NCBI GenBank assembly: GCA_016934265.1
Contig: JAFGTF010000022.1
Coordinates: 9,172-73,171 of the forward strand
DNA from: Spirochaetota bacterium
GTDB lineage: Bacteria; Spirochaetota; B62-G9; DRHN01
DNA length: 64,000 nucleotides
Direction of reading: 5' to 3'
How positions within the stretch are numbered: the first letter of the stretch is position 1; the number at the start of each line of letters is the position of its first letter. The notes beneath the pieces are model-generated. The model saw only the letters and a list, made by a program, of their open reading frames with translations. It made no database searches and was not told the DNA's origin. Below, piece after piece: positions 8,697 through 56,762 of this stretch. Position numbers and translations under genes: made by a program.

Positions 8697-8781
8697 TCTT
8701 GCGTAGGAGTAATCCGTCTGCATCGCTGCTTTTCACCCTCCTGAAGGAAAGGGCGTACAGCCGGCGGTCACGATACCGGTA

Positions 8782-39751: not shown

Positions 39752-40593
39752 TCCTCAAGCCTCCTGTCTATCGCGGCAAACTCCTGCTCCGCCTGCAGTA
39801 TCTCCTCCTCCTTCGCCTTCCAGTAGTGGAAATCCACCCTGTCTTCCGCAAAAGAGATGCCCTTCGATTTCACCGTATCGGCGATCACCACGGACGGCTT
39901 TCCCTTTTCGAACGGGAACTCCTCCGCAGCTTTTACTATTGTCTCGATATCGTGGCCGTTTATGATCCTCGTTCCCCAGCCGAACGACCGCCACCGCTCT
40001 TCGAGCGGCTCATAGCTCATCACCTCCACCGTGCGGCCGGAGATCTGCAGCGAATTCCGGTCTACGAAGACGAGCATGTTGTCGAGCTTGTGATGGCTCG
40101 AGGCCGCGGCGGCTTCCCAGTTCGAGCCCTCCGCGAGCTCGCCGTCTCCCATTATGACGTATACCTTCGATCCGAGCCCGTCCATCTTCAGCCCCATGGC
40201 CATGCCGCCCGCGATCGAAAGGCCGTGGCCGAGGGCGCCGGTGTTGGACTCGACGCCGGGCAGCTTGTGCATATCAGGATGACCGGGCAGCTTCGAGCCG
40301 AGCGAACCGTACGTGTCCAAAACCGAATGGTCGAAGAAACCGCGCTCCGCCAAAACGGCGTAGAGGGCGAGACACTTGTGGCCGGCCGAGAGCACGAACC
40401 GGTCGCGGTCGCGCATCAGAGGCTTTTTCGGGTCGATATTCATTATTTTGAAATACAGCGCGGTGACGATGTCGACTATGGAAAGCGCGCCGCCGATATG
40501 TCCCATCTTGCCCGCCTTGATCTCCCTCAGCACGTTCTTCCTCACCTGCAGGGCGGTCTTCTGCAGTGTTTTCAGTTCCTGTGGTGTAAGCAT
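39748..40593 (-). CDS. tktA: transketolase, N-terminal (thiamine-diphosphate-binding) subunit
   Basis: 'GHIGGALSIVDI', 'GHPDMHKLPGVESNTGALGHG', 'VIMGDGELAEGSNWEA'. ATGA overlap with the C-terminal subunit gene. Confidence 0.9.
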   Translation of the reverse strand: MLTPQELKTLQKTALQVRKNVLREIKAGKMGHIGGALSIVDIVTALYFKIMNIDPKKPLMRDRDRFVLSAGHKCLALYAVLAERGFFDHSVLDTYGSLGSKLPGHPDMHKLPGVESNTGALGHGLSIAGGMAMGLKMDGLGSKVYVIMGDGELAEGSNWEAAAASSHHKLDNMLVFVDRNSLQISGRTVEVMSYEPLEERWRSFGWGTRIINGHDIETIVKAAEEFPFEKGKPSVVIADTVKSKGISFAEDRVDFHYWKAKEEEILQAEQEFAAIDRRLEE

Positions 40594-40647
40594 TGAAAGT
40601 CGCTCCTATGATCTACATACGTAAATGCGGGAGCAATACGTCCGTAT

Positions 40648-41094
40648 TTACGTCCGGTGCTCCTTCGCGTACTCGTAGATACGCTGTATTTTAGGTTCCG
40701 AGCGTCCGCCGGGCGTGTACTCGGCATCCATCCAGACCTTGACGAGCGTCTTGGCGAGCTGCGGCCCTATGGTCTGCGCACCCATGGTCATTATGTTCGC
40801 GTTGTTGCTCTTTCTGGACCGTTCCGTCGAGTAGGAGTCGGCGCATAGGGCCGCGTAAGCGCCCGGCACCTTGTTCGCCGCGATGCACATGCCGATTCCG
40901 GTCCCGCAGATCAGGATTCCGCGGTCGTGCGTACCGTTCGCAACGGCCTCGGCAACCTTGAATGCGACGTTCGCGTAGATAGGATCGTCGCTTCCGTAAT
41001 CCTCGCACTCGTATCCCAGCTCGGCGAGCTCTTGTTTCACAAGCTCTTTCATATCGGCTGCATTCGGGTCGCAGCCGACGGCTACCTTCTTCAT
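40648..41094 (-). CDS. rpiB: ribose-5-phosphate isomerase B (RpiB/LacAB family)
   Basis: 'MKKVAVGCDPNA...GILICGTGIGMCIAANK...'. ATG at 41094. Confidence 0.85.
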   Translation of the reverse strand: MKKVAVGCDPNAADMKELVKQELAELGYECEDYGSDDPIYANVAFKVAEAVANGTHDRGILICGTGIGMCIAANKVPGAYAALCADSYSTERSRKSNNANIMTMGAQTIGPQLAKTLVKVWMDAEYTPGGRSEPKIQRIYEYAKEHRT

Positions 41095-41167
41095 GTACGG
41101 GTCCTCCTGTCGCGTAATTTCTGTATGGTGGTAAGATACTAAAAGAGAAAAGATAATGAAAGGAATA

Positions 41168-42067
41168 TTACGTCTTCTTTGCAAGCGCACGCTGCTTCTC
41201 GTAGGCGAAGAGCTCGTCGCGCTTCAGCGGTCCCTCTTCTATCTCGACGCCGAGTTTTTCAGAAAAGGCGGACAGAACACAGGCTTTGAACTCCTCCTTG
41301 CCGGGCCTTTTCCCTGTCACCTCCTCGACGGACGTGATCGGCTCGAGCACCTTGTCCTTCACCTCGGGAGGAACCCATATTACCTTGAAGAAGTCGTCGG
41401 TGACGAGCGGCCCGAGGAAGCAGAGGACGTTCACGACCTCGAGGCCCTCGACCTCCGAAATGACGCAGGTGGCGATCTTCTTTCCGCCGACGCGCACGGA
41501 GCCGCGGTGCTTGTACCAGGCGTCCTTCACGCCGAAGCACGCGAGAGCCTTCAGGATTACCTCCCCGATCCGCCTGTACGCAGTGTCCGAATCGCTGAAG
41601 AAACCCTTTTGGTGCACCATCTGCAGAGAAACGGTGGATTCCGGATGGACGAACACGAGCGTCCGCTCGCCCGTGAGGATGATATGCTCGAGCGTCGGCA
41701 CGTCGGGCTTGATCTCGTTCAAGAGCGGCGCGAAGTTGGTGAGCGCAATAATCGCCTTCGCGCCTGAGTCGTTCAGTATGTGTATAACCTCACGGCCCTT
41801 GTACATCGTATTGAAGGGAACGGCGACGGCGCCGAGCTTCTGGAGCGCGTAGAAGGAGTACACGAACTCCGGGATATTCGGCAGCATGATGGCCACCCTG
41901 TCCCCTTTCTTCACGCCCAAGCCCAGCAGCCCGTTCGCGAGCTTGTTCACCGATTCGTTGAGCTGCGCGAAGGTGATCGTTTTTCCCTCGAATACGAGGG
42001 CTGCCTTCTTCTTGTATATCTTCGCCCTGTCCTCGATGGTCTCGCCGAGGCTTTTTCTTTCGATCAC
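41168..42067 (-). CDS. chimeric ORF: N-terminal ~134 aa of an AMP-dependent acyl-CoA synthetase fused in frame to the C-terminal ~165 aa of a lipoate-protein-ligase (BPL_LplA_LipB) family protein
   Basis: GTG at 42067 behind an AGGAG RBS. Residues 1-134 carry the AMP-binding N-terminal block 'GDRVAIMLPNIPEF...DSGAKAIIA...HIILTG'. Residues ~137-299 carry LplA-like 'AYRRIGEVILKALACFGVKDAW...GSVRVGGKKIATCVISE'. See findings. Confidence 0.5.
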   Translation of the reverse strand: MIERKSLGETIEDRAKIYKKKAALVFEGKTITFAQLNESVNKLANGLLGLGVKKGDRVAIMLPNIPEFVYSFYALQKLGAVAVPFNTMYKGREVIHILNDSGAKAIIALTNFAPLLNEIKPDVPTLEHIILTGERTLVFVHPESTVSLQMVHQKGFFSDSDTAYRRIGEVILKALACFGVKDAWYKHRGSVRVGGKKIATCVISEVEGLEVVNVLCFLGPLVTDDFFKVIWVPPEVKDKVLEPITSVEEVTGKRPGKEEFKACVLSAFSEKLGVEIEEGPLKRDELFAYEKQRALAKKT

Positions 42068-42077
42068 CGGTTTCTCC

Positions 42078-43487
42078 TCACTTTCCGTTTTTTTCCAGAA
42101 GCCGTTCGTCCTTGTACCCGTCTCGAAGCTCCTTCTTGAGCACTTTCCCCGTTGCCGACTTCGGGAGTGATTCCCGGAACTCGACGAACTTCGGCAGCTT
42201 GTATGGAGAGAGATGCTCCCTGCAGAACTCGACGATCTCCTTCGGGTCCGCGGTCTCGCTTTCCTCGAGCACGATGAAAGCCTTCACAGTCTCGCGCCCG
42301 CTCTTGTCCGGCACGCCGATGACGGCGGCGTCATGAACCTTCGGGTGGGTGAACAGCACCTCCTCGACCTCGCGGGGGGAGATATTGAACCCGCCCCTGA
42401 TGATGATGTCCTTCTTCCTGTCAGTGATGAAGATATACCCTTCTTCGTCTTTGTACCCCATATCGCCGGTATGAAACCAGCCGTTCTTCATCGCCTCCGC
42501 GGTCTCCTCCGGGTTGTTGTAGTACCCCTTGCTTATCATGGCCCCCTTTATCACGATCTCGCCGGTTTCGTTCGGCCCCAGCTCGACGTCGTTCTCGTCG
42601 AATATCTTTATCTCGATCTGCAGCGGAGGCTTGCCGATGGAACCCGGCCTGTACCCCTCGCCGGTGGTATTGAGACAGACGGCGGAGGTGGTCTCGGTAA
42701 GGCCGTATCCCTCGGAGAGCTGGGTCTGGAATACCTCTTCGAACTCCCTGATCGTGGTGAGCGGAAGGGGCGCTCCGCCGGAGATGCAGCTCCGCAGTGA
42801 TTTCGGGATCGATGTCTTCCTCGACTTCGAGATCTGCAGAAGGTGTATGTACATCGACGGTATCGCGATGAGCACCGTCGCCTGTACCTCGGCCATGTTC
42901 TTCAGAAGCTCGGTGGGGCTGTACTGGGGGATCAGGCTCAGGGTGCAGCCGAAATAGACCGCGGGGGTCAAAACATTCGCCATCGCGTACACGTGGTACA
43001 AAGGCAGCACGCCCACGATCCGGTCCTCCGGGTAGAGGGGGAAAATCACCTCGACCAATTCGAACTCACCGAGGAAGTTTTCGTGCGTGAGCATGACGCC
43101 CTTGGGGCTGCCCGTCGTGCCTGAAGTGTAGAGCAGAAGCGCGGTATCGGAAAGGTCCACCTCCTCGGCTGAGAACTTGCTCGACGATTTGATCATAAGC
43201 TCCTTGAGCGAGACGGTATCCGTCTGCTTCGCGCCGCCCCGTCCGCTCCGTGGATAGGAAGCGACGTCGATGTCGTGATCCTTCGCCGACTGCTTGTCCA
43301 CCCGCACGTCCGCACCCGCGAGGATACCTTTTTTATTAACGCCCTGCACGACCACGGTATCCGGTATCTTCTCCCGCGAGAGAAGGTACTTGCCCGCGAG
43401 CCTTCCCTCCACGAGAGCCGACGGGTACGCCAGTATGTCCGCGGCGTCGCCCTCGGGGTTGTAGATGAGTCTCCATTTGTCCGCCAT
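42078..43487 (-). CDS. chimeric ORF: N-terminal ~88 aa of a lipoate-protein-ligase family protein fused in frame to the core and C-terminal domain of an AMP-dependent acyl-CoA synthetase (FadD-like)
   Basis: Residues 1-88 'MADKWRLIYNPEGDAADILAYPSALVEG...KYLL...PDTVVVQG...DIDVASYPRSGRGGA' track the LplA/LplJ N-terminus through the RRxSGGGAV region. The remainder is a canonical ANL enzyme: 'YTSGTTGSPKGVMLTHEN', 'GYGLTET', 'GWFHTGD', 'SATGKV'. Confidence 0.55.
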   Translation of the reverse strand: MADKWRLIYNPEGDAADILAYPSALVEGRLAGKYLLSREKIPDTVVVQGVNKKGILAGADVRVDKQSAKDHDIDVASYPRSGRGGAKQTDTVSLKELMIKSSSKFSAEEVDLSDTALLLYTSGTTGSPKGVMLTHENFLGEFELVEVIFPLYPEDRIVGVLPLYHVYAMANVLTPAVYFGCTLSLIPQYSPTELLKNMAEVQATVLIAIPSMYIHLLQISKSRKTSIPKSLRSCISGGAPLPLTTIREFEEVFQTQLSEGYGLTETTSAVCLNTTGEGYRPGSIGKPPLQIEIKIFDENDVELGPNETGEIVIKGAMISKGYYNNPEETAEAMKNGWFHTGDMGYKDEEGYIFITDRKKDIIIRGGFNISPREVEEVLFTHPKVHDAAVIGVPDKSGRETVKAFIVLEESETADPKEIVEFCREHLSPYKLPKFVEFRESLPKSATGKVLKKELRDGYKDERLLEKNGK

Positions 43488-43491
43488 ATTC

Positions 43492-44970
43492 TTAATCGGC
43501 CTCCAGGAATTCTTCCACCTCGTCGAAGAACTTCGCCTTGATCTCCTCCGACGGCCGTTCGGTGAAAAGGCTCACAACGATATACAGTATCATATTGACG
43601 ATGATCGTCGGCATCACGGGGTGCATCCCGAAAAAGAGCGGTTTGTAAAGGAGCCCCGCCACGAGGTATATGAGCCCGGCCAGGGTGCCGACGATCGCCC
43701 CCTGCTTTGTGCCGCGCTTCCATAAGATTCCTCCCACAAGCGCGGGCCCCCACTGCGCAAACCCCGGTATGGTGACCTCCGTGAGGTAGAGGGCCATGGC
43801 CTTGGTATACCGAAGGGAAACGACGAGGCTGATGATGGTGATGCCCACGACCGACCAACGCGCCCACTTTACGATCTTGGAGTCTTCCGCTTCCGGCTTG
43901 AAGAAGCCCTGGATGAGGTCGCGGGCGATGATGATACTGGAGGTGAGAAGCTGCACCGCGGCGGTGGAGACAGCGGCCGCTATCACCCCCATGAGGACGT
44001 ATACGGAGAACCAGCTCGGCAGCTTCTGCGTTATTATGGTTTGTACGATCGAATCGGCCGCCTCCTTTCCGGTGACGCCGGGCATCACCACCGGAGCAAC
44101 GAGAGAGCCCCAGATGAACGGGAGGGTGTAGAAGAACACCCCGCCGAATATGAATATGAGTATGGGAAACCATTTGAAGAGGACCTTGTCGCGCGCGGTC
44201 ATAACGCCGATGACGATATGCGGCCAGGAGAAGGCCATGAGCCCGACGACCATCGTGCCGCCGATCACAACCGGTGTGAAATAGCCCAAGGGTCCCGGTG
44301 CGGAGAGCATCTCCGGGTTCTGCACCATGAGTGTCTGTGCCGCCGCCTTCAGCCCCCCCGGAATGAGCCTGTTGAAGGCCCAGATCAGCGATCCCAAGAG
44401 AGCCGATGCGTACACGCTTCCCAAGAATATGTTCACCCACGCGACGATGCGCATTCCGCCGAGTATGACGAGTATCACGAGAAGGACTACGGTGTACGCG
44501 GCCCCGACTATGATGGGCATCCCGGTGAGCGTCTTGAACCCTAATCCCACTCCCAAAGGCTGTATGCCGACGTACGGGACGATGAATACGAGGAGCATGA
44601 GGGAGAGCAGTACCCGTAAGAACGGCGATTCGTACCGTTCCGCCAGTACCTCGACGGGGGAGAGAAACCGGTTCAGCCTCGCAATGGCCCAGAGGCGGGG
44701 CCCGAGAAACATGTACAGGGCGGCGAATCCGGCGACCGATCCCCAGACAAAATAGATGTATGAGGGTCCGTGCAGGTATAAAAACCCCGGGTAGCCGTAA
44801 AACGTCCAGGATGAAGATACCGCAAAGAGCACGAAGAAAAACATCACCACAACGCCGATCGTTCTCCCTGCGAGCATGTAGTCCTCCGCGGTCTTGGCTG
44901 AAACCTTGTAGCCGTAGGCGGCCATGCCTAAAATAGCCAGACCGAAAAGGGCGAGAATAAGAATTGTCAT
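43492..44970 (-). CDS. sodium:solute symporter family transporter (monocarboxylate/acetate permease-like)
   Basis: 13-TM SSS architecture. It pairs with the upstream DUF4212 small subunit and is followed by an acyl-CoA ligase, as in acetate-uptake (actP) loci. Confidence 0.8.
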   Translation of the reverse strand: MTILILALFGLAILGMAAYGYKVSAKTAEDYMLAGRTIGVVVMFFFVLFAVSSSWTFYGYPGFLYLHGPSYIYFVWGSVAGFAALYMFLGPRLWAIARLNRFLSPVEVLAERYESPFLRVLLSLMLLVFIVPYVGIQPLGVGLGFKTLTGMPIIVGAAYTVVLLVILVILGGMRIVAWVNIFLGSVYASALLGSLIWAFNRLIPGGLKAAAQTLMVQNPEMLSAPGPLGYFTPVVIGGTMVVGLMAFSWPHIVIGVMTARDKVLFKWFPILIFIFGGVFFYTLPFIWGSLVAPVVMPGVTGKEAADSIVQTIITQKLPSWFSVYVLMGVIAAAVSTAAVQLLTSSIIIARDLIQGFFKPEAEDSKIVKWARWSVVGITIISLVVSLRYTKAMALYLTEVTIPGFAQWGPALVGGILWKRGTKQGAIVGTLAGLIYLVAGLLYKPLFFGMHPVMPTIIVNMILYIVVSLFTERPSEEIKAKFFDEVEEFLEAD

Positions 44971-44988
44971 GTCGTTCCTCCTTTTTTC

Positions 44989-45210
44989 CTACCGGTAGGG
45001 CCAGTATTTAAAGAAGTAGATCAGGTACGCAACGAGCCAGACCAGGGTCATGACCAGTCCGGCGAAGAGCGGAAGGGTCATCCAGCCGAACACGAGGATC
45101 TTCGCGGTGAAGTAGCGGGTCACGAAGAGCATGCCCACGACGGAAAGAAAGAGGATTCCGACGAAGATCTTTCCTGGCGTATGTCTTAAGATTTCACGCA
45201 TCGTTTCCAC
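44989..45210 (-). CDS. DUF4212 small membrane protein (putative solute:sodium symporter small subunit)
   Basis: 73 aa with two TM helices, immediately upstream of the SSS transporter. Confidence 0.65.
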   Translation of the reverse strand: METMREILRHTPGKIFVGILFLSVVGMLFVTRYFTAKILVFGWMTLPLFAGLVMTLVWLVAYLIYFFKYWPYR

Positions 45211-45403
45211 CTCCTGCGGTATGATACCCCGCTGGCCTTATTTTCAGTCTCATTATCTTCACTCGTCTTCGGCCTGCCGTATTTTTAGTGAAACCTGCCG
45301 CATACGTGCATGGGCGGGGTGCGGCCTCTTTGGGGGCCGTATTCTTCTCCTTTTTGATGGTTTATTATTATATTATTAAAAACCCGCGTCAATGGTTAAA
45401 TAA

Positions 45404-46837
45404 ATGACAATCAAAGGTCCCGAAGGCCTGCAAAAGACGGAGGAAGCGGTCTCCGAGCTTTCGCCTCTTCTTAAAAGCGGCCGGATCGAAAGGCTCGAAA
45501 ACCTCGACGAGCGTACCCTCGTCATGTCCGTGTATCGGAACGGGCGGCACACGGTCGTCGCCTGCGTATCGAAGCGGTCGCCTGGAGTGTTTCTTTTCAC
45601 CGAAACGGTACGGCCCGAGTATCTCTACTCGTCCGCAAAGACGGCTCATATGAGCAGGATTCTCAAAGCATGCAAGATCACGGATGTTTTTTGCTTCGGG
45701 CAGGGGGTCGTGTTCACCTGCCGGGGAGAGGAAGAGTTGCAGCTCTTCGTCGATTTCGGCGTTTCGGACATAGCGCTCGCGGACAAAGAAGGGCGCGCGA
45801 TCGCGTCTCTTTTCGGTCGTATTGACGAGGCGGTCCGGTATCAGGCGGCCTCCAACGGCCCGCGCGCACCGAAAACGCGGAACACACCGGTAAGCGATAT
45901 GCTTTCCGCACGCTTTTTCTCGGAACGAAACGGCGGGCTTGTCGCCGCAGCTTTGAAAACGCTGAATACCGAGGAGAAAAAGAAAAAGCGGCTTCTTTTG
46001 AAGCTTTCACAAGAGGACAGGGAGGCACAGCAGGGCGAGCGGTACAAATGGTGGGGAGAGCTTCTCAAGTACAACCTCGAACGGGTGCCGCCCGGCGCGA
46101 GCGCCGTTTCGCTTCGGGACTTCGAGGGAAAAACCGAAACGGTGCCGCTCGACCCGCGTATGACCGCGCGACAGAACATGGAGCGCTATTTCGCCCGCTA
46201 CCGGAAGATGAAGCGGAGAAAGGGTGGGTCTTCAGAACGGGTAGAGAACGAGAAGAATGCGCTTTTTCGTATCTCGGCGCTGAAGAAGAGGATCACAGGC
46301 GGCGATCTCGTCGGCCTCGACCGGCCTCCATCGCTTCTTTTATCCGCCCCGGAGCTCGAAGCGCTCGGCCGGGGACTTTTAGGGAGGCTCGAAAAGGCCC
46401 TTACCGGCGGGGGGAAGAAAAAAAAGCAGCCGGAAGAGGAAAAGAAGCCGCACCTCGTTTTTTTTACCTCCTCGGGCAAGCGGGTGTTCGTCGGGCGGAA
46501 CGCGTCCGAGAACGACGAGCTCGTCAGGCGGGTGGCGCGCGGGAACGACCTCTGGTTTCACGCGGAAGGTGTTTCCGGGAGCCATGTGCTGCTCCGGTAC
46601 GAGAAGAAAGGCGGGTTCACCGAAAACGACGTGCGCGACGCCTGCATGCTCGCTCTGCACTTCAGCAGATTCCGCGACCAAAAAAGCGGCCCCGTCGTTT
46701 ACACTTTCTGCAAGTGCGTGAAAAAAAAGAAGGGGGCGGGAGCCGGGCACGTCGAATACTTCAACAACAAGACGAAGATCGTTACGATGGACGACTCGGT
46801 GCTCGCCGGACTGCTCGGTCGGACGCAGGCTCGCTGA
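45404..46837 (+). CDS. NFACT-family (RqcH/FbpA-like) protein with a C-terminal NFACT-R (DUF814) domain
   Basis: C-terminal 'VFVGRNASENDELVRRVARGNDLWFHAEGVSGSHVLL' is the DUF814 signature. The N-terminal region is NFACT-N-like. Confidence 0.6.
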   Translation: MTIKGPEGLQKTEEAVSELSPLLKSGRIERLENLDERTLVMSVYRNGRHTVVACVSKRSPGVFLFTETVRPEYLYSSAKTAHMSRILKACKITDVFCFGQGVVFTCRGEEELQLFVDFGVSDIALADKEGRAIASLFGRIDEAVRYQAASNGPRAPKTRNTPVSDMLSARFFSERNGGLVAAALKTLNTEEKKKKRLLLKLSQEDREAQQGERYKWWGELLKYNLERVPPGASAVSLRDFEGKTETVPLDPRMTARQNMERYFARYRKMKRRKGGSSERVENEKNALFRISALKKRITGGDLVGLDRPPSLLLSAPELEALGRGLLGRLEKALTGGGKKKKQPEEEKKPHLVFFTSSGKRVFVGRNASENDELVRRVARGNDLWFHAEGVSGSHVLLRYEKKGGFTENDVRDACMLALHFSRFRDQKSGPVVYTFCKCVKKKKGAGAGHVEYFNNKTKIVTMDDSVLAGLLGRTQAR

Positions 46838-46994
46838 CGGGCGATGAAATCACTTGACAACGGCGGGGGGAGGTAATTTATTTGTTTATTCCATCGACAG
46901 TAACGATCCGTCCGTTCGAAGCGGTTTCGATGCGCAAAATGCCGGATCTTCGAACGGCGGGCTGCGATCTTCGATCGTTTAACAGGGGCGTGAA

Positions 46995-48200
46995 ATGAAA
47001 AAAGCGGTGCTTGCATTCTCCGGCGGTCTCGATACCTCCTTCTGCGTGGTCTATCTCAAGGAGGAGCTCGGATACGACGTGATATCGGTCACGGTCGATA
47101 CGGGCGGATTCTCGAAAGAGGAGCTGAAACGGATAGAAACGCGGGCCTATTCGCTCGGCGTGAAGAAGCATATCACCGTCGACGCCACCAAGTTCGTGTA
47201 TGACAGGTTCATCTCCTATATTGTGAAGGGCAACTCGCTGAGAGGGAACGTCTACCCGCTCTCGGTCGGCGCAGAACGGGTGGCCCAGGCCGTCGAGATA
47301 TCCAGAACGGCCGTCCGTGAGAAGGCGGACGCGGTCTGCCACGGCTCGACCGGCGCGGGTAACGACCAGATCAGGTTCGACGTCGCGTTCAGGGCGCTGG
47401 TTCCGGAAAAAGAGCTTCTCACGCCGATACGCGAGCTCGGTCTCTCGAGGGAACAGGAGGCCGACCGGCTCGCCGCCTGGGGCTTTCCGGTCGACGCCGA
47501 GGTGAAGGACTACTCCATAAACGAGGGAATCTGGGGTACCACGATAGGCGGAAAGCAGACGCACGACCCGTGGGACTTCCCTCCGGATACGGTGTTCAAA
47601 CATACGAGTGGAACGGACGGCCCAGCGCTTCCCCCGCGAGAGATCGTCATAGTTTTCAAAGAGGGGCTCCCGGTCGAGTTGGAGGGCGAGAAGCTGTCAG
47701 GAGTCGACGCCCTGCGCCGACTCAACGAAACGGCCGGCGGATACGGTATCGGGAGGGGGGTGCACGTGGGAGATACGATCCTCGGAATAAAGGGAAGGAT
47801 CGTATTCGAGGCGCCGGCGCCGGTGGTTCTGATCGCCGCGCACAGGGAGCTCGAAAAGCTCGTGCTCTCCAAGAACCAGCGTTTCTGGAAGGACCACCTC
47901 GGGCAGGTGTACGGCGACATGCTGCACGAGGGGCTCTATTTCGATCCGGTGATGCGCGACATCGAGGCGATGCTCGATTCGTCCCAGGAGAGCGTTTCGG
48001 GTCGTGTGAGGGTGCGGCTTCTGCCCGGCAGCTTCCTCGTCACCGGGACGGAGAGCGAGTACTCGCTCATGAAGAGCGACCTCGCGACATACGGCGAGGT
48101 ACAGTCGCTGTGGGACAGCAGGGACGCCGAGGGATTCAGCAGGATATACGGGATACCGGCGAGGCTGTTCGGTATCGTACACAAGGACAAATGGCTTTGA
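46995..48200 (+). CDS. argG: argininosuccinate synthase
   Basis: PP-loop 'AFSGGLDTS', then 'HGSTGAGNDQIRFD'. It heads an argC/D/F'/B/H cluster. Confidence 0.8.
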   Translation: MKKAVLAFSGGLDTSFCVVYLKEELGYDVISVTVDTGGFSKEELKRIETRAYSLGVKKHITVDATKFVYDRFISYIVKGNSLRGNVYPLSVGAERVAQAVEISRTAVREKADAVCHGSTGAGNDQIRFDVAFRALVPEKELLTPIRELGLSREQEADRLAAWGFPVDAEVKDYSINEGIWGTTIGGKQTHDPWDFPPDTVFKHTSGTDGPALPPREIVIVFKEGLPVELEGEKLSGVDALRRLNETAGGYGIGRGVHVGDTILGIKGRIVFEAPAPVVLIAAHRELEKLVLSKNQRFWKDHLGQVYGDMLHEGLYFDPVMRDIEAMLDSSQESVSGRVRVRLLPGSFLVTGTESEYSLMKSDLATYGEVQSLWDSRDAEGFSRIYGIPARLFGIVHKDKWL

Positions 48201-49222
48201 AGAAGCTTAGGGTCGACAAGATCGCCTCCGTGACCGTCAACCTCGGTCTTTCGAAGACTGTGGAGGTCTCTGACAGAATCAGCGCCAGGCAGGGTGCGGT
48301 CTGCGTTGTCAGGGCGCTCGAGGAGAAGCGGGTCTACGACAAGCTGGAGCTGTCATCCGGGCGCATGGCAAAGATATCGAGGGGCGACATAATCGTCGGC
48401 GCCCTCGGTAAAAGGCGCGCGCTCATGGGATTCTGCGGCGTCGTTCCCGAGTCCGTGAAGACCGGCGATACGCTCAACATCCTCAATATAGGGGGTGTGA
48501 TCGGAAAGGCCACGAGCTACAACCGGGACTACGGGCTCCCGCTCAAGGTGGAAGTGCTCGGTGCGGCCTGCAGGGAGGGGACGCCTCTCAATATAGCGGA
48601 CCACGCAAGGCCCGTCGCCTCCACGCTGCGATCGTCGATGCCGATCGTCGTCGTCTCGGGAACGTCAATGAACAGCGGCAAGACGGTAGCCGCATCGAAG
48701 ATCGTCCAGGAGCTCACCTGGAAAGGGTATACGGTCGCAGCGGCAAAGGTGTCCGGAGTGTCCGCGTTGAAGGATACTCTCAACATGATGGACCATGGTG
48801 CGGTAGAGGCGCTCTCGTTTCTCGATTTCGGCTACCCCTCCACGGTCGGATCGGAGGATGTGCCCCGTATTACGAAGGGCGCGCTCAACGCCCTCTCGGA
48901 GTCGGATCCGGATGTCTGTGTGGTAGAGCTCGGGGACGGCATTCTGGGGGACTACGGGGTGAAAACGTTCTTTTCCGACCGGGAGATCGCTTCCGCGATC
49001 TCTTGCAACATCGTGTGCGCGATCGATCCGGTGGGGGCGTGGGGGATAACCGAGATCCTGCGAAAGGAGGGGATCGGTGTGGACCTCGTCTCCGGTCCCA
49101 TAACGGACAACACCGTGGGCATAGATTTTATACGGAACAACCTGGGCTGTACGGGCATCAACGCGGTGGACGGGAAGAAGCTCGGCGACTTCGTTCAGCG
49201 CCGTATAGGTGAAAAGTCATGA
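48191..49222 (+). CDS. DUF1611-like P-loop (BioD/CobQ-fold) protein of unknown function embedded in the arginine cluster
   Basis: ATG at 48191 overlaps the argG end. Rossmann-like N-domain, then P-loop 'VVVSGTSMNSGKTVAASKIV'. The 3' end overlaps the argC start. The family assignment is tentative. Confidence 0.4.
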   Translation: MALKKLRVDKIASVTVNLGLSKTVEVSDRISARQGAVCVVRALEEKRVYDKLELSSGRMAKISRGDIIVGALGKRRALMGFCGVVPESVKTGDTLNILNIGGVIGKATSYNRDYGLPLKVEVLGAACREGTPLNIADHARPVASTLRSSMPIVVVSGTSMNSGKTVAASKIVQELTWKGYTVAAAKVSGVSALKDTLNMMDHGAVEALSFLDFGYPSTVGSEDVPRITKGALNALSESDPDVCVVELGDGILGDYGVKTFFSDREIASAISCNIVCAIDPVGAWGITEILRKEGIGVDLVSGPITDNTVGIDFIRNNLGCTGINAVDGKKLGDFVQRRIGEKS

Positions 49223-50271
49223 TCTTCAAGAGCAAAAAACGGATCAGCGTCGGTATTATCGGCGGCGCGGGATACGGGGGCTCCGAGCTCCTCAGGATTC
49301 TTCTCTTTCACCCGAAGGTGCAGCTTTTATTCGTCACTTCCAGACAGCACGCGGGGAAAAAGGTCGCGTCCGTAAACCGGTTCCTCACCGGGGTCACCGA
49401 CCTCGTGTTCACGGAGCCCGACATCGACGGCATTCCGCAGGACACCGACCTCGTGTTCTTCGCGACGCCGCACGGCGTGTCCATGACCATGATGAAGGCG
49501 CTCGTAAACAGGGTGCCGAAGGCTCGGGTGGTGGACCTGAGCGGGGATTTCCGCCTGAAGAACGCGAACGTATACAGGCAGTACTACGGAAAGGAACACG
49601 GGGCCGCGGAGCTTTTAGAGCGGTTTTTCTACGGCCTTCCGGAGTTTTGCCGGGACTCGGTGAAGAATGCGCAGTATGTCGCGAATCCCGGATGCTTCGC
49701 CACCGGGATCATCTTTGCGCTGTACCCCCTCTTTTTAGCCGATGCGGTCGGCAGGGCCGTACACGTCGTATCGGTAACCGGGTCTTCCGGATCGGGTGAG
49801 TCGCCGAAAGCGGTGACGCATCATCCGTACAGGGCGAAAAACTTCAAGTCTTATAAAATACTGGAGCATCAGCACCTGCCGGAGATTCAGCAGTTCTTCC
49901 GGTCCCAGTTTCCCGGCCGGGATACGGAGATAGGGATCGTGCCGCAGTCCGGCCCCTTCGTCAGAGGGATATACACCACCTCGTCGGTATACGGCGTTTC
50001 CGCGTCGTCAGACGACGTACGGGCGGCGTTCGAATCGTCGTACGAAAACGAGCGGTTCGTCAGGATCGTGGATGAATCCCCGGAGGTAACGACGGTTTGC
50101 GGGACGAACCACGTGGAGGTCGCCTTTGTCTGCAAGAACGACTGGATCGTGAGCATGAGCGCGATAGACAACCTCGTCCGAGGCGCGAGCGGTCAGGCCG
50201 TGCAGAATATGAACCTCATGTTCGGATTCGACGAAGACGAGGGCCTCCTGTTTCCCGGCATGAGACCGTAA
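49219..50271 (+). CDS. argC: N-acetyl-gamma-glutamyl-phosphate reductase
   Basis: 'ISVGIIGGAGYGGSELLRIL', catalytic Cys in 'ANPGCFATG', C-terminal 'NLVRGASGQAVQNMNLMFG'. Confidence 0.9.
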   Translation: MIFKSKKRISVGIIGGAGYGGSELLRILLFHPKVQLLFVTSRQHAGKKVASVNRFLTGVTDLVFTEPDIDGIPQDTDLVFFATPHGVSMTMMKALVNRVPKARVVDLSGDFRLKNANVYRQYYGKEHGAAELLERFFYGLPEFCRDSVKNAQYVANPGCFATGIIFALYPLFLADAVGRAVHVVSVTGSSGSGESPKAVTHHPYRAKNFKSYKILEHQHLPEIQQFFRSQFPGRDTEIGIVPQSGPFVRGIYTTSSVYGVSASSDDVRAAFESSYENERFVRIVDESPEVTTVCGTNHVEVAFVCKNDWIVSMSAIDNLVRGASGQAVQNMNLMFGFDEDEGLLFPGMRP

Positions 50272-50312
50272 CCGCGGCGCCGTTCGTACCACTACTAAAG
50301 AGGATACAAAAG

Positions 50313-51485
50313 ATGGGAATGAAATTCGACGAGATCAAGGAAATGGAAGAGAAGTACCAGCTCGGTACGTACAGGAAGCTCTCTTTGGCGGTTGCGCGCG
50401 GCGAGGGCGTATACGTGTGGGACACGGAGGGAAAACGGTATCTCGACCTGTACGGCGGGCACGCGGTGGCGCTGGTCGGCCACTGCCATCCCCGGGTCGT
50501 AAAGGCGGTTTCCGATCAGGTCAAGACGCTCGTCTTCTACTCGAACGTCGTATACTCCGAGGTACGGGCGCTCGCGTCGAAGGCGATCGTCGAGGTGGCG
50601 CCTTCCTCGATGGACAGGGTGTTCTTTTGCAACTCGGGTGCAGAGGCGAACGAGACCGCTCTCAAGATCGCGCGCCGGTTCACCGGCAAAACGAGGGTGG
50701 TCGCGATGAAGGAGGGGTTTCACGGGAGGACCATCGGTGCACTCAGCGCCACCGCGCTCGGCCACTACCGGAGTGATTTCATACCCGTGCTCGATGCGTT
50801 CGATTTCATCCCGTTTGGAGACGCCGGCGCGCTCGAGAGCGCCGTATCGGACCAAACCGCGGCGGTGATGCTCGAGCCCGTCCAGTCCATGGCCGGGGTC
50901 GAGATCGCGGACGACGGGTACTATAAAAAGCTTCGACGGATCTCGTCCGCGCACGGCGCCCTGCTCATCTTCGACGAAATACAGACCGGATTCGGGAGAA
51001 CGGGCGAGTGGTTCTTCGGAGACCGTATCGGTGTGGTTCCCGACCTCATCACCCTCGCCAAGGGAATCGGGGGCGGCCTGCCGCTCGGCGCCGTTTTGAT
51101 AGACAAACGCGTGTCAAAGACGATAGGGTACGGGGAGCACGGATCGACGTTCGGCGGCGGCCCCGTTGCAGCGAGCGCTCTTTTCGCCACGATACAGGCG
51201 ATACGGGAGGATAAGCTTTTAGAAAACGCCAGGGATACGGGCGAATATCTGAAAACCGAGCTGCAGAAGATCGGCATCGTTAAAGCGGTGAAGGGGCGGG
51301 GGCTCCTTTTGGGTATAGAGATAACAAAGAAGGCCTCCGATTGCCGGGACCGGCTGCTCGAGCGGGGAATCATCACCGGCACGTCGGCGAAACCGGACGT
51401 GCTCAGGCTTCTGCCTCCCCTCGTGCTCACGCCCGATGAGGCAAAGCCATTTATCGAAGCGCTGACCGAGTACGGCGAGGGGTGA
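50313..51485 (+). CDS. argD: acetylornithine aminotransferase
   Basis: Class III aminotransferase: 'LDLYGGHAVALVGHCHP', 'FCNSGAEANETALKIAR', 'LIFDEIQTGFGRTG', PLP-Lys 'TLAKGIGGG'. ATG at 50313 with an AAAGAGG RBS. Confidence 0.9.
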   Translation: MGMKFDEIKEMEEKYQLGTYRKLSLAVARGEGVYVWDTEGKRYLDLYGGHAVALVGHCHPRVVKAVSDQVKTLVFYSNVVYSEVRALASKAIVEVAPSSMDRVFFCNSGAEANETALKIARRFTGKTRVVAMKEGFHGRTIGALSATALGHYRSDFIPVLDAFDFIPFGDAGALESAVSDQTAAVMLEPVQSMAGVEIADDGYYKKLRRISSAHGALLIFDEIQTGFGRTGEWFFGDRIGVVPDLITLAKGIGGGLPLGAVLIDKRVSKTIGYGEHGSTFGGGPVAASALFATIQAIREDKLLENARDTGEYLKTELQKIGIVKAVKGRGLLLGIEITKKASDCRDRLLERGIITGTSAKPDVLRLLPPLVLTPDEAKPFIEALTEYGEG

Positions 51486-51524
51486 GGAGGCGCTGAGGGC
51501 TATTTACTACGAAGGGGTGGCATT

Positions 51525-52526
51525 ATGGAACACTTTATAACGACGGCGGATTTCTCGGCGGATGAGCTCGACGAGCTCATCGACCGTGCGGGACGCATGA
51601 AGCGGGGGGAAGAGGCGCCTACCGTGGCGGGGAAAAATCTTATACTGCTTTTTTTCAACCCCTCTCTCAGAACGAGAACATCGTTCGAGTTCGCGATGCA
51701 ACAGCTCGGCGGCAATACCGTCACGCTCAATACGGGCGGGGACACGTGGAAGCTCGAGGACAGAGAGGGCGTGGTCATGGACGGTGAGGCTGCGGAGCAC
51801 ATTACGGACGCGGCGCGGGTTTTGGGACGGTATGCGGACGCTATCGGAATACGGGTGTTCGCCGCGGGGGAATCATGGGAAAAGGACAGAAAGGACCCCG
51901 TGCTCGGGGCCTTCGTGCGGGAAGCGGGTGTGCCGGTCGTCAACATGGAGTCGTCCCTCTACCACCCGAACCAGGCGCTCGGGGACATCATGACCGTAAA
52001 GGAGCATTTCGGGAGGGATATACGGGGCCTTCCCATAACCATAACCTGGGCGAACCACCCGAATCCGCTCCCCATGGCGGTGGCGAACTCGATACTTCTT
52101 ATCTCCTGCCGTTTCGGGATGGACGTACGGCTCGTGCGGCCTGAAGGATACGACCTCGACGAAACCGTGATGGACAGGGCGAAAGAGCTTTTAAAAGAGT
52201 CAAAAGGGAGCATACGAGTAACCGATAACATAAATGAGGGTTTCAAAGGCTCCAGGGTGGTCTACGCGAAGAGCTGGGGAAGCATCCGCTTCTACGGTGA
52301 CAAGAAGAGGGAGCGCGAACATCGTAAAAGCCTCGACGGGTGGATCGTCGACGACGAGAAGATGGCCCTCACGGACGGCGGTGTGTTCATGCACTGCCTT
52401 CCGGTACGACGCAACGTTGTGGTGACCGACTCGGTCATCGACGGTAAAAGCTCGATCGTCTACGACGAGGCCGAGAACCGGCTCCATGCGCAGAAGGCCG
52501 TGCTCTGCCGCCTCCTCGGAGGATAG
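51525..52526 (+). CDS. argF': N-acetylornithine (or N-succinylornithine) carbamoyltransferase, ArgF' type
   Basis: Near-collinear with Xanthomonas AOTCase: 'LLFFNPSLRTRTSFE', 'VNMESSLYHPNQALGD', 'VVYAKSWGS...IVDDEKMALTDGGVFMHCLPVRRNV...DEAENRLHAQKA'. The canonical ornithine-binding 'DxxxSMG' motif is replaced by 'AKSWGS'. Confidence 0.85.
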   Translation: MEHFITTADFSADELDELIDRAGRMKRGEEAPTVAGKNLILLFFNPSLRTRTSFEFAMQQLGGNTVTLNTGGDTWKLEDREGVVMDGEAAEHITDAARVLGRYADAIGIRVFAAGESWEKDRKDPVLGAFVREAGVPVVNMESSLYHPNQALGDIMTVKEHFGRDIRGLPITITWANHPNPLPMAVANSILLISCRFGMDVRLVRPEGYDLDETVMDRAKELLKESKGSIRVTDNINEGFKGSRVVYAKSWGSIRFYGDKKREREHRKSLDGWIVDDEKMALTDGGVFMHCLPVRRNVVVTDSVIDGKSSIVYDEAENRLHAQKAVLCRLLGG

Positions 52527-52688
52527 TGATGAGAAACTCGTTCGCCGGCCTAAAAGGAGGCGGAGGAGGAAAAAAAGCAATCATCGTGCGGTCCGAACAA
52601 ACCGCGGATAAGAAAACAAACGCGGGACCGGCCCGGGTAGAACAATAGGCGGGATTTGCTCGGGTAGAACAATAGGCGGGAGTATATT

Positions 52689-53606
52689 ATGGAGGATATA
52701 GGCATCCTCAAACAGGCACTTCCCTATTTCAAAGAGTACAAGGGGAAGACGTTCGTCATAAAGGTGGGCGGCGAGCTCGTACAGGAGTACAGGGTCATCG
52801 ACGGTATCGCGCAGGACGTCTCCCTCATGCACCAGACCGGCATCAGGACGGTGCTCGTGCACGGCGGCGGTCCGCAGGCGAACGAGCTCTCGCAACGTCT
52901 CGGAATCACGCCGAAGATAGTGGGGGGCAGGAGGGTCACCGACGAGGAGGCGCTCGAGGTAACGAAGATGGTGTTCGCCGGGAAGATCAACCACGAAATC
53001 CTCACCCTCATCCAGAAGCATGGTTCGAGTGCGGTCGGTCTCTCCGGGATAGACGGCAGCATGATAGTGGCGCGGCGCCGGGCGCCGATGGAGATCACGG
53101 ACCGGGCCACTGGAGAAACGAACAACGTCGACTACGGCCACGTCGGCGATATCAGGGAAGTCAACGTCGGCCTTTTGGAAACGCTTCTCTCCGAGGGATA
53201 CGTGCCGGTCATATCGTCGCTCGCGGACGACGGCGAGGGGAATATTCTGAACATCAACGCCGATACCGTCGCCTCACGACTCGCGGTCGCGCTCGGTGCA
53301 TACAAGTTCATCACCATGACGAACGTGAACGGGGTGCTGAAAAACAGGGACGATCCGGAATCGAAGATTTCGTATATTTCGAAAAAACAGGCAGAGCGTC
53401 TCATCGAAGAGGGAACGCTGGCGGGCGGTATGGTGCCCAAGGTACAGACGTGCCTTGATGCGGTGAAAGGCGGCGTGAAGCGTGTCCATATCTTGAACGG
53501 CTTCGAGAAGGATTCTCTCCTCAAAGAGGTGTTCACGAAGAAAGGCGTGGGCACGATGATTCTGACCGATGAAGATGCGGAGGAATACGGTGCACGGGGT
53601 TATTGA
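52689..53606 (+). CDS. argB: acetylglutamate kinase
   Basis: 'FVIKVGGELV', 'VLVHGGGPQ', 'NINADTVA', 'TMTNVNGVL'. Confidence 0.9.
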   Translation: MEDIGILKQALPYFKEYKGKTFVIKVGGELVQEYRVIDGIAQDVSLMHQTGIRTVLVHGGGPQANELSQRLGITPKIVGGRRVTDEEALEVTKMVFAGKINHEILTLIQKHGSSAVGLSGIDGSMIVARRRAPMEITDRATGETNNVDYGHVGDIREVNVGLLETLLSEGYVPVISSLADDGEGNILNINADTVASRLAVALGAYKFITMTNVNGVLKNRDDPESKISYISKKQAERLIEEGTLAGGMVPKVQTCLDAVKGGVKRVHILNGFEKDSLLKEVFTKKGVGTMILTDEDAEEYGARGY

Positions 53607-53735
53607 ATTACGCGGCTTCGGCCCGTAACGCAATAACCGTCCGATACGTATCCGGAGGATCGAAATCTCGGATTTCAGCCCCCGGAATACGTACTGCACG
53701 GGGTCATTGAATTCTGGAAATGGAGGAGTGGAAGA

Positions 53736-55142
53736 GTGGCGCTGAGAGACGGAAGGTTCGAAAATCCCGTTTCGGAGAGCTTCGGCAGAATAAATCCGTC
53801 CATCCACGTGGACCGTAGACTCTTCAAGGAGGATATACGGGGTTCGATCGCCTATGCCGGAGCCCTCGGGAAGAACAAGATCATCAGCAGGGAGGAGGAG
53901 GCGCTCATTGTCGGAGGTTTGAGTGAAATAGAGAAGGAGATAGAGGAGGGCGGCTTCCCGTTTTCCGAAGAGGACGAGGACATACACATGAACGTGGAGC
54001 GGCGGCTTTTCGAAAAGATAGGTGAAGCCGCATACAAACTCCATACGGGGAGGAGCAGGAACGAGCAGATCGTTCTCGACGAGATGCTCTATCTCAAAAA
54101 GGCGACGTCCGAGCTCGACCGGTCGCTAAAAGCCACGGTCTCGGCGGCCCTTGGTGCCGCGAAAGGATGCGTGGAGGTAGTCGTTCCATCCTACACACAC
54201 CTCAGGCGCGCGCAGCCTGCAAGCCTCGCGCATCTCTTTCTCGCGTACTGCCACCCGCTGCAGCGGGCGAGGGAGCGCTGTTCCGATTACTGGAAGCGGC
54301 TCGACAGGATGCCGCTCGGGTCCGGTGCGGTCGCAGGCTCGGCGCTCGGCATCGACAGGGCATACCTCGCCGACAAACTAGGCTTCTCCGGGATCACGGA
54401 AAATTCGATCGACGCCGTCTCCACCAGGGATTTCATCCTCGAATTCGTATGGATATGCGCCGAGGCGTGCACCACGCTTTCGAGAATCTCCGAGGACCTC
54501 ATCATCCTTTCTTCCGAGGAGTTCGGTTTCCTCCGCCTGCCGGATGGTTTCTGCACCACCTCCTCGCTCATGCCGCAGAAGGCGAATCCCGATGCGCTCG
54601 AGCTCGTACGGGGAAAATCGTCGAGGGTTACGGCGGCCCTCGTGTCGCTTTTCACCCTTTTAAAGGGGCTCCCCTATTCCTACGACCGGGACCTGCAGGA
54701 GGACAAGGAGCCGATGTTCGACGCGGCGGACACGACCCTTTCGGTGCTCGGCGTGGTAAAAGGGATCTTCGAGGGCCTCAAGGTGAACGAGGAGAGGATC
54801 AAGCTCGCGGTAGAGGGTTCGGGAGACCTCATATTCGCCACCGACGTCGCGGACTGGCTCGTGAGACGCGGTATACCGTTCAGGGAGGCCCACAGGACGG
54901 TGGGAAAGATCGTCGGTTTCGCGGTAAAGGAGAAGAAAGGATTGCGCGAGCTCTCCGTCGGGGAGTACCGGCGGTTCTGCGGGCTGTTCGACGAATCGGT
55001 GTACGACCTGTTCGACTACAGGCGGTCGGTCGACAGCCACGACGTTCCCGGAGGGACGGCCTTCACGAGGGTCCGGGAGCAGATCGGCACGCTCGAAAAG
55101 GCGCTGAAACGGGGAGAAGACCTCGGCGCGGGCTCCCACTGA
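53736..55142 (+). CDS. argH: argininosuccinate lyase
   Basis: Fumarase/lyase class: 'GSGAVAGSALGIDRAYLA', signature 'SSLMPQKANPDALELVRGK'. GTG start with a GGAGG RBS. Confidence 0.9.
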   Translation: MALRDGRFENPVSESFGRINPSIHVDRRLFKEDIRGSIAYAGALGKNKIISREEEALIVGGLSEIEKEIEEGGFPFSEEDEDIHMNVERRLFEKIGEAAYKLHTGRSRNEQIVLDEMLYLKKATSELDRSLKATVSAALGAAKGCVEVVVPSYTHLRRAQPASLAHLFLAYCHPLQRARERCSDYWKRLDRMPLGSGAVAGSALGIDRAYLADKLGFSGITENSIDAVSTRDFILEFVWICAEACTTLSRISEDLIILSSEEFGFLRLPDGFCTTSSLMPQKANPDALELVRGKSSRVTAALVSLFTLLKGLPYSYDRDLQEDKEPMFDAADTTLSVLGVVKGIFEGLKVNEERIKLAVEGSGDLIFATDVADWLVRRGIPFREAHRTVGKIVGFAVKEKKGLRELSVGEYRRFCGLFDESVYDLFDYRRSVDSHDVPGGTAFTRVREQIGTLEKALKRGEDLGAGSH

Positions 55143-55298
55143 AAACCGGATCGCAACGCTCCGTTACGTTCCCTCCGAATTCGTAAAGCAGCAAACGGTT
55201 CAGAAAGCTCTCCGCGTATCGGCACGGCTGAAAGAGGAACGTGGGACATCCGAACGGCGTCAGCGCCGCTTTATCCATGTAATCGTTCCGAATTGTGT

Positions 55299-55326
55299 TT
55301 GAAATATTATCCCCCCGTACTATAAT
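55299..55326 (+). promoter_or_regulatory. sigma70-like promoter (TTGAAA-N16-TATAAT) upstream of zupT, bracketed by an 11-bp perfect inverted repeat
   Basis: -35 TTGAAA at 55299-55304, 16-bp spacer, -10 TATAAT at 55321-55326. The IR arms 'AATCGTTCCGA' at 55281-55291 and 55350-55360 (reverse complement) flank it. Confidence 0.4.
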
Positions 55327-55401
55327 TTCCAGTGTTTTCCGTCATGCAGTCGGAACGATTCGGTGTCTGATCTCCCAAACGGCGGATAACAGGAGGTTGG
55401 C

Positions 55402-56211
55402 ATGCTGGAATCTCTCTTGAGCTTCAATCCCATCGTCCAGGCGCTGTTCGGTACCATATTCACCTGGTTTCTCACCGCGCTCGGCGCGGCCTGTGTATTT
55501 TTAATGAAGAGTCTCAAACGGAAGGTCTTGGACCTCATGCTCGGATTCGCCGCAGGCGTCATGATCGCGGCGAGCTTCTGGTCTCTCCTTCAGCCGGCCA
55601 TAGAGATGTCGGAGGGCGGGAACGTGCCGTCGTTCGTCCCGGCGGTCTCAGGGTTTCTGCTGGGCGGCGTGTTCTTATGGGGCATCGACAGGCTTCTTCC
55701 CCACCTGCATTTAGGGCTCCCGAGGGAGGAGGCGGAGGGCATAAAGACCAGCTGGCAGCGCAGTATCCTGCTTGTTCTCGCGATAACGATTCACAACATC
55801 CCGGAAGGGCTTGCCGTCGGCGTGGCGTTCGGTGCGGTAGCGTCGGGGCTCCCGTCCGCGACGATCGCAGCCGCGGTCGCGCTCGCATTCGGGATCGGGA
55901 TACAGAACTTCCCCGAGGGACTGGCCGTTTCCATGCCGCTTAGGCGCGAGGGCATGTCGAGAGCTAAAAGCTTTTTCTTCGGACAGCTCTCGGGAATGGT
56001 CGAGCCGGTCGCAGGCGTGCTTGGGGCGGCGGCGGTCATTTTCGCCCGGCCGATTCTCCCCTACGCCCTCTCTTTCGCCGCAGGCGCGATGATATTCGTC
56101 GTCGCGGAAGAGCTCATACCGGAGTCGCAGCGCGAGGGCACGGACGTGGCGACGATAGGAGTTATGATCGGATTCGCGGTTATGATGCTGCTCGACGTCG
56201 CGCTCGGCTGA
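55402..56211 (+). CDS. zupT: ZIP family metal (zinc) transporter ZupT
   Basis: 8-TM ZIP protein with '[14 protein letters not shown]' and '[10 protein letters not shown]' metal-binding motifs. Confidence 0.85.
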
Positions 56212-56762
56212 AAGACCCCCCATGTAGAATGTCGATACCGGATGGAGAGTGGGCGGCGCAGACGGGCATACGCCCGGCATCCCGGCTCTGTGCCGGCATT
56301 CTCATCAGGATGAAATTCGAATTATTAATTATTTTTACGGCAGATAATCAAAACGCCCGTTTTCTGCGATTGAATATGACAGCCGTTGTAATTCATTATT
56401 ACGTACACTAGAAATAAAACTCGGCATCGGCTATTGTTACAAACGGCGTATATGATTCCGGATTGAATAAGGAAGCCGACGATACAACAGACATCGAAAA
56501 AATGGGGAGTATTAAAATTAGGATTTCGAACTACTATTATGAGTATTTACAATCCTATAACGGATTATAGTCCAGCTTCAAAGTCATCGTTGTATCGGTG
56601 GTTATACGGAGAATGTGAATGCTGTCGGTGTGTGGTAAAGGGGCTGTTATTTTGTCTTCCTTAGGAAGAAAAATTCGGTCTGTGCAGAGGCGTGCCGTCT
56701 ACCGGCCGTGTTCTTTTGACACAAAAGGATGAAGAAATGTATACTGTCCCAATGGTATAGTT

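Follow-up and report, generated by a model that had tools for sequence, protein, structure and literature searches.

The first step of arginine synthesis, the N-acylation of glutamate, is carried out by ArgA, which joins an amino-acid kinase domain to a GNAT domain, or by ArgJ, an ornithine acetyltransferase, both of which work with an acetyl group. In Bacteroidetes, the step is assigned to BT3761 (ArgA2), a GNAT N-succinylglutamate synthase whose gene lies beside argG and argC in a pathway with a succinyl-type ArgF' (N-acyl-ornithine carbamoyltransferase), and this role is backed genetically by arginine auxotrophy and by co-fitness with arg genes. Price et al. ('GapMind 2026', bioRxiv 10.1101/2024.10.14.618325, July 2026 version) predicted an alternative N-succinylglutamate synthase, ACG33_RS14135 (A0A127FCT3) from Steroidobacter denitrificans. 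They reported that its family and ArgA homologues never co-occur, that it has weak Foldseek similarity to 7XRJ, and that residue 92 of the ArgF' proteins encoded beside this family is A, P, S, V, I, T or, rarely, Q. The structure 7XRJ is that of DgcN, a D-glutamate N-acetyltransferase (EC 2.3.1.312); 2G0T and 2OBN are DUF1611 structures. Here, we describe a gene, called X below, that lies between argG and argC in an uncultured member of the Spirochaetota and would fill the same first step. It was found in a window of 64,000 nucleotides (nt), by which we mean the whole stretch of DNA that was analysed (positions 9,172 to 73,171 of contig JAFGTF010000022.1, assembly GCA_016934265.1).

X has no sequence or fold similarity to ArgA or ArgJ, and its acyl group would probably be succinyl rather than acetyl. 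With BT3761 it shares the proposed reaction, the place beside argG and argC and a pathway with a succinyl-type ArgF', but the GNAT fold of BT3761 is unrelated to that of X, whose role is a prediction. The likeness to the ACG33_RS14135 family is closer in kind: both are hypothetical proteins encoded in arg operons (argB, C, D, F', G, H, sometimes argE and argR), both have a remote likeness to DgcN, and both are accompanied by ArgF' proteins with A, S, T or, rarely, Q in place of Glu92. X comes from an uncultured Spirochaetes metagenome-assembled genome (MAG) and ACG33_RS14135 from a gammaproteobacterium, and they are likened by genomic context and structure, not by sequence; there was no Steroidobacter among the 80 best X-family loci of our genome scan. 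All the features compared were reproduced, including the rare Gln, and we strongly infer that the two families are the same. X is then the Spirochaetota member of a recently proposed enzyme family and not the first of its kind, since the idea was already published as a prediction by Price et al.

We consider it quite probable that X is the first enzyme of the arginine pathway, making N-acyl-glutamate, probably N-succinyl-glutamate, for ArgB. The grounds for this are its operon linkage, a first step that is otherwise empty, a separate deacylase that co-occurs with it, and a structural link to a glutamate N-acyltransferase. An N-acylglutamate-forming role was among those suggested for X in the earlier note on this DNA, and it is now supported by the arg linkage in other species, by the 14 clusters with a deacylase described below and by the prediction of Price et al.

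Linkage of X to the arginine genes

X overlaps both of its neighbours, as the earlier note had pointed out, and Pfam and NCBIfam agree on the gene order given there, argG-X-argC-argD-argF'-argB-argH. Its start shares 10 nt with the end of argG (stop codon at 48198-48200), its TGA stop forms an ATGA tetranucleotide (49219-49222) with the start of argC, and AAGGA, a Shine-Dalgarno-like sequence, lies 3 nt before its ATG. X and argG/argC are translationally coupled, which counts for a role of X in the arginine pathway. The identical NCBI protein, JXQ30_02185 of a Spirochaetes bacterium, is annotated on a 115-kb contig as a 'hypothetical protein' of 341 amino acids (aa), and thus TTG at 48197 is a possible start; ATG is favoured by close homologues of the same length as our frame, which begin 'MAV..'. 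A longer frame (47570-49222) was rejected as a gene, being the frame of X extended upstream through argG, and scans for promoters and terminators of the arg operon gave results at chance level.

The family is large. More than 5,700 homologues are found in a 90%-clustered protein collection, all of them 'hypothetical' and none with a Pfam domain, and one WOR-3 homologue, 63% identical to X, carries a UniRef label beginning 'DUF1611 dom...'. An exhaustive HMMER search over 1.84 billion representative sequences gave 1,379 clusters (representatives at 50% identity) at E values up to 1e-3 and 137 at E values up to 1e-30, and a scan with one genome per species found the family in at least 591 species. 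For the context counts, we used those of 90 fetched loci that had enough flanking sequence, the loci of the genome scan being the 80 best. argG lies directly upstream of X in 81 of 82 loci and argC directly downstream in 74 of 80. The earlier note had named orthologues without arg linkage in other species as evidence that would speak against its proposal; what we found is linkage almost without exception. It extends over Spirochaetota, WOR-3, Planctomycetota, Acidobacteriota, Cloacimonadota and Wallbacteria, six phyla or candidate phyla at the least, and persists in homologues that are only 33% and 39% identical to X. The argG-X pair is also kept where argC is missing downstream (Planctomycetota loci L044 and L036) or lies 5 kb off (Wallbacteria locus L014), and argG-X is therefore the tightest linkage.

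The layout of the cluster varies among these groups. Spirochaetota and WOR-3 have the order seen in the window, and Planctomycetota, some Acidobacteriota and Cloacimonadota have the same layout plus an M20 deacylase. In Blastocatellia, the order is argR-argG-X-argC-argD-argF'-argB, and most such clusters have no ArgE-type gene. X and an ArgE/DapE-type M20 protein occur together in 14 clusters, and the planctomycete M20 protein scores as an ArgE/DapE-family deacylase. This speaks against X as the deacylase and leaves the N-acyl-glutamate-forming step for it.

That step has no other evident enzyme in the part of the genome that we could see. The earlier note had reported neither argA, argJ nor a deacylase in the window, and indeed there is no ArgJ, ArgA, M20 deacylase or ArgA2-like gene among the 38 window open reading frames (ORFs) scanned (35 against Pfam and a further 3 against NCBIfam); the statement holds for these ORFs, the scan having left out two long ones (32818-36033 and 56763-58529 (-)) and all those shorter than 90 aa. 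The sole GNAT protein among the scanned ORFs is RimI, at 8226-8723 (-) (TIGR01575, 113 bits against a cut-off of 86), and X itself has no GNAT or ArgJ (PF01960) domain match in Pfam (E values up to 10) or in NCBIfam. A further conserved unknown gene 3' of argB, as a possible deacylase, was looked for and not found. We also considered a carrier pathway of the LysW/ArgX type and rejected it, as ArgB and ArgC are standard equivalogs and the cluster has no ATP-grasp or LysW-sized gene.

Predicted acyl specificity of ArgF'

The assignment of the carbamoyltransferase to the N-acyl-ornithine variant, made in the earlier note, is upheld by its NCBIfam match (Table 1) and by its best PDB relatives, which are Xanthomonas N-acetylornithine carbamoyltransferase (AOTCase) entries, with 3l02 scoring highest. 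At the position aligned to residue 90 of the window ArgF', 3l02 has Ala, and the near-identical entries 3m4n and 3l05 have Glu or Ser. By chain numbering, Ala90 of the window protein (codon 51792-51794) corresponds to Glu92 of the native Xanthomonas AOTCase. Price et al. (10.1101/2024.10.14.618325), quoting Shi et al. (2007), give N-succinylornithine as the substrate to which the enzyme is switched when Glu92 is replaced with Ala, Pro, Ser or Val. Given Ala90, the cluster probably uses N-succinyl intermediates, and from its sequence the window ArgF' is predicted to be specific for N-succinylornithine, although the name of the NCBI model is 'N-acetylornithine carbamoyltransferase'. The same position was read in 64 ArgF' proteins encoded beside X: it is Thr in 41, Ala in 20, Ser in 2 and Gln in 1, and Glu in none. 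The 41 Thr-type proteins come from Blastocatellia/Pyrinomonadaceae loci (L016-L086).

Fold of X and its possible mechanism

An AlphaFold2 model of X, built from a 36-sequence alignment, is confident, with a predicted local distance difference test score (pLDDT) of 91.8 and a predicted template modelling score (pTM) of 0.90, and has two domains. The C-terminal domain (residues ~147-343) has a SIMIBI-class P-loop fold, for which Foldseek returned FtsY, SRP54, BioD, HypB and MeaB at E ~1e-6, and its P-loop, GTSMNSGKT, is of the BioD/CobQ type recognized in the earlier note, with the BioD spacing GxxxxxGKT. The N-terminal domain (residues 1-146) is highly conserved and is modelled as almost entirely beta-strand, and for this reason its earlier description as Rossmann-like is unsupported. 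Its invariant residues are K10, S13, Y49, E53, R58, D66, R75 and N99, and residues 50-57 form a low-confidence loop that is probably mobile. From the model, we infer that this domain may bind the substrate as a dicarboxylate-binding lid.

In an alignment of 59 superfamily members that reaches down to 23% identity, the only invariant residues are G163, K164, K186 and E246 (codons of the last three at 48680-48682, 48746-48748 and 48926-48928). K164 and K186 pair with conserved BioD lysines in hidden Markov model (HMM) and hhalign alignments, which by residue count are K15 and K37 of the E. coli protein, and K186 matches the BioD pattern of a second conserved Lys ~22 residues past the P-loop. E246, in ExGDG, resembles the EGAGG of BioD (the magnesium-site Glu, E115) by motif only and is aligned with it by no tool, and D201 stands opposite the Asp of the BioD 'nsDal' motif (D54 by count) in an hhalign match to E. 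coli BioD that has 25% probability and covers 58 columns. PDB sequence searches with X and with a 36-member profile gave nothing significant, whereas the 59-sequence profile had M. tuberculosis BioD as its best match, at an E value of 1.8e-5, and no DUF1611 entry at E values up to 10. BioD is a single-domain protein of ~225 aa without the beta N-domain, it is found in another genomic context, and its significant sequence similarity to X extends over ~50 residues only.

The likeness of X to DUF1611 and DgcN, also proposed in the earlier note, is partial. X has the C-terminal P-loop domain fold of DUF1611 and DgcN, and its model shows remote structural similarity to DgcN (7XRJ). However, 7XRJ is not among the best 50 Foldseek PDB matches, which are generic SIMIBI proteins, and the X family profile matches none of the 7XRJ, 2G0T and 2OBN sequences. 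The N-terminal architecture also differs, being all-beta in X and Rossmann-like in DUF1611/DgcN, where the N-terminal domain is DUF1611_N of Pfam. The proposed chemistry would differ as well, since X would act anabolically on L-glutamate with a succinyl group, whereas DgcN is catabolic and works on D-glutamate with an acetyl group. A weak PF07755 match occurs in 27 of 36 family members (best E value 0.0024) and is about as weak as the matches to MobB and CbiA.

With these comparisons in mind, a mechanism can be sketched. X would N-acylate L-glutamate to N-succinyl-L-glutamate, and ArgB, ArgC, ArgD and the succinyl-type ArgF' would carry this product to N-succinylcitrulline; X would thus stand in for ArgA, ArgJ and the Bacteroides GNAT protein ArgA2 by non-orthologous displacement. 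By analogy with DgcN, an acetyl-CoA:D-glutamate N-acetyltransferase, the acyl donor would be succinyl-coenzyme A (succinyl-CoA). The P-loop domain may grip the ADP-phosphate part of the CoA thioester, and the dicarboxylate substrates may be held by the conserved beta-rich N-domain, which has a mobile loop and invariant Arg and Lys residues. Taken as a whole, the statement that X is an N-succinyl-L-glutamate synthase using succinyl-CoA is one towards which we lean with modest confidence.

Several points weigh against this. The PF07755 (DUF1611_C) match of X scores 15.0 bits against a cut-off of 25 and covers residues 148-184 only; the sequence likeness to DUF1611 is thus below threshold and limited to the P-loop, and the N-domains differ. 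The best PDB sequence match of the family is the ATP-dependent BioD and not DgcN, and, judging from the alignments, the invariant set G163/K164/K186/E246 would suit ATP chemistry at least as well as it would suit CoA binding. At the position that sets ArgF' specificity, the most frequent residue is Thr, which is outside the substitutions that were experimentally found to switch the enzyme to the succinyl substrate. The search for argA, argJ and argE covered only 64 kb of the genome. The gene, its fold and conservation, its operon linkage and the residue at the ArgF' specificity position are established, whereas the reaction catalysed by X, its acyl group and donor, and the part played by each of its domains are predictions.

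The question of the donor leads to an alternative that we regard as unlikely but worth stating, in which X makes N-succinyl-L-glutamate as an ATP-dependent ligase. Succinate would be converted into succinyl phosphate, which would then be attacked by the amino group of glutamate, with no CoA thioester involved, on the model of the carboxylate-phosphorylating enzymes BioD, CTP synthase, CobQ and formate-tetrahydrofolate ligase. The spacing of the P-loop, the alignment of K164 and K186 with the ATP-contacting lysines of BioD, the resemblance of ExGDG to EGAGG and the outcome of the 59-sequence profile search are all consistent with such a ligase, and the distant plasmid homologues of X stand among ATP-grasp ligases. 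There is also precedent for ATP-dependent N-acylation of glutamate as a protecting step, in ArgX/LysX of the LysW pathway. Nevertheless, the hhalign match to E. coli BioD is as short and improbable as stated above, and the P-loop lysines could equally bind CoA phosphates. An ADP moiety is common to ATP and CoA, so that the P-loop cannot tell the two apart. The wider form of this idea would have X found a new first-step class, a BioD-like succinate:L-glutamate ligase independent of CoA thioesters whose distant relatives in phosphonate-type and fungal clusters would apply an 'acylate, carbamoylate, deacylate' logic to the making of natural products; we consider it doubtful too.

It is quite improbable, in our estimation, that X is an accessory nucleotide-binding factor such as a SIMIBI-type metallochaperone, an assembly factor for an arginine enzyme or a protein that regulates flux through the operon. 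A factor of this kind, suggested as an alternative in the earlier note and in keeping with the generic SIMIBI matches of the model, would leave the first step without an enzyme in very many genomes; moreover, the family has no conserved NKxD guanine motif, the invariant charged residues give its highly conserved additional N-domain the look of a substrate site, its homologues in natural-product-like clusters stand among enzymes, and mutual exclusion with ArgA is reported by Price et al. (10.1101/2024.10.14.618325). X might also be an N-succinylcitrulline desuccinylase, or an ArgJ-like transacylase that returns the succinyl group to glutamate, which would explain the Spirochaetota, WOR-3 and Blastocatellia clusters that have no M20 deacylase. 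In the window, both the acylation and the deacylation steps are without an assigned gene, and there, as in most Blastocatellia clusters, no ArgE-type gene is present. No other conserved unknown gene follows argB. We give this very little credence, given that X and an ArgE/DapE-family M20 protein stand side by side in the 14 clusters mentioned above and that there is no known precedent for a P-loop fold as an amide-bond hydrolase or transacylase. Cys276 is nearly invariant in the family, but several members have Thr in its place, which makes a thioester intermediate unlikely.

A first-step synthase of this kind would matter beyond the present genome. For many Acidobacteriota, Planctomycetota, Spirochaetota and candidate phyla, automated pathway reconstruction calls arginine synthesis incomplete for lack of an N-acetylglutamate synthase, and the literature contains an example of this. 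Should X prove to be the synthase, the gap would be closed in at least several hundred species, and metagenome studies that wrongly call an organism an 'arginine auxotroph' would be put right. Beside ArgA/ArgJ and the Bacteroides GNAT protein, there would then be a third kind of first-step enzyme with an unrelated structure, and the succinyl form of the pathway would be much commoner than has been assumed. What remains as the new, testable biochemical question is whether the acyl group comes from a CoA thioester or is attached by ATP-driven ligation.

Operon features, distant relatives and other genes of the window

The features of the arg operon and of X are collected in Table 1.

Table 1. 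Positions of the arg operon genes and of the parts of X in the window
Feature	Position	Strand	Basis
argG, argininosuccinate synthase, 401 aa	46995..48200	+	PF00764, PF20979; NF001770 340 bits, above cut-off
X, candidate N-succinyl-L-glutamate synthase, 343 aa, unannotated family	48191..49222	+	ORF (ATG start), conserved argG/argC position, structure model
X N-terminal domain, residues 1-146	48191..48628	+	
X C-terminal SIMIBI-class P-loop domain, residues 147-343, BioD/DUF1611-like	48629..49219	+	
X P-loop G157-T-S-M-N-S-G-K164-T165	48659..48685	+	Family alignments
argC	49219..50271	+	TIGR01850 358 bits
argD, N-acylornithine aminotransferase, 390 aa	50313..51485	+	PF00202, TIGR00707; start checked
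argF', N-acyl-ornithine carbamoyltransferase, 333 aa	51525..52526	+	NF003384 446 bits
argB, N-acylglutamate kinase, 305 aa	52689..53606	+	TIGR00761 243 bits
argH, argininosuccinate lyase, 468 aa, GTG start	53736..55142	+	TIGR00838 517 bits

Beyond the arginine clusters, full-length plasmid relatives of X were found with tblastn at 27-31% identity, and hhalign gave 99.1% probability (E value 5e-19) over 306 columns that include the N-domain. For instance, homologues with 27-29% identity are encoded on the Bacillus paranthracis plasmid NZ_CP116206 (locus L093, 5863-6891) and the Priestia megaterium plasmid NZ_CP085446 (L094, 5899-6960), in phosphonate-type clusters with phosphoenolpyruvate mutase, split thiamine pyrophosphate decarboxylase genes and ATP-grasp ligases. 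An aspartate/ornithine carbamoyltransferase homologue lies directly upstream of or near the X-like gene in these clusters, and that of Priestia additionally has an M20 peptidase. As an observation rather than a demonstrated function, the recurrent presence of a carbamoyltransferase beside an X-like gene, with an M20 protein added in Priestia, echoes the protect, carbamoylate and deprotect logic of the arg pathway. On the Sulfitobacter plasmid NZ_CP040754 (L092, 5902-6999), an X-like protein labelled 'DUF1611 domain-containing' (16.5 bits, below the Pfam gathering score) is encoded next to an ABC ATPase and an Asp/Asn beta-hydroxylase-domain protein. In the fungus Aspergillus avenaceus (ML742132.1; L091, 10001-11056), an intronless homologue with 32% identity, P0187, labelled 'P-loop containing NTP hydrolase', adjoins genes for a citrate synthase, a Zn-cluster transcription factor and an MFS transporter, and may reflect horizontal transfer into a secondary-metabolite locus.

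Synteny between the window (38819-58529) and candidate division WOR-3 bacterium SM1_77 (L003/L004) extends beyond the arg cluster. Both have rpiB, a split transketolase, NFACT and argG-X-C-D-F'-B-H. After argH, the window has a ZIP transporter where the WOR-3 contigs have a 265-aa gene without a Pfam domain; further downstream, the SM1_77 contigs have an LTD-domain gene at a position that in the window holds the ORF at 56763-58529 (-). The 'Spirochaetes' MAG and the 'WOR-3' MAG appear to be close kin, or else one of them appears to be misclassified.

Two other places in the window deserve mention. At 41168-43487 (-), beside a sodium:solute symporter, lie two adjoining ORFs of the AMP-binding family, one of 469 aa that corresponds to profile positions 151-384 plus a C-terminal domain and one of 299 aa that corresponds to profile positions 2-124; they may represent an acyl-CoA synthetase pair that has been rearranged or has degenerated. 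At 3126-4789 (-), a homocysteine-biosynthesis sulfur-incorporation protein (PF01837, HcyBio, 501 bits) is encoded next to a NIL-domain ferredoxin.

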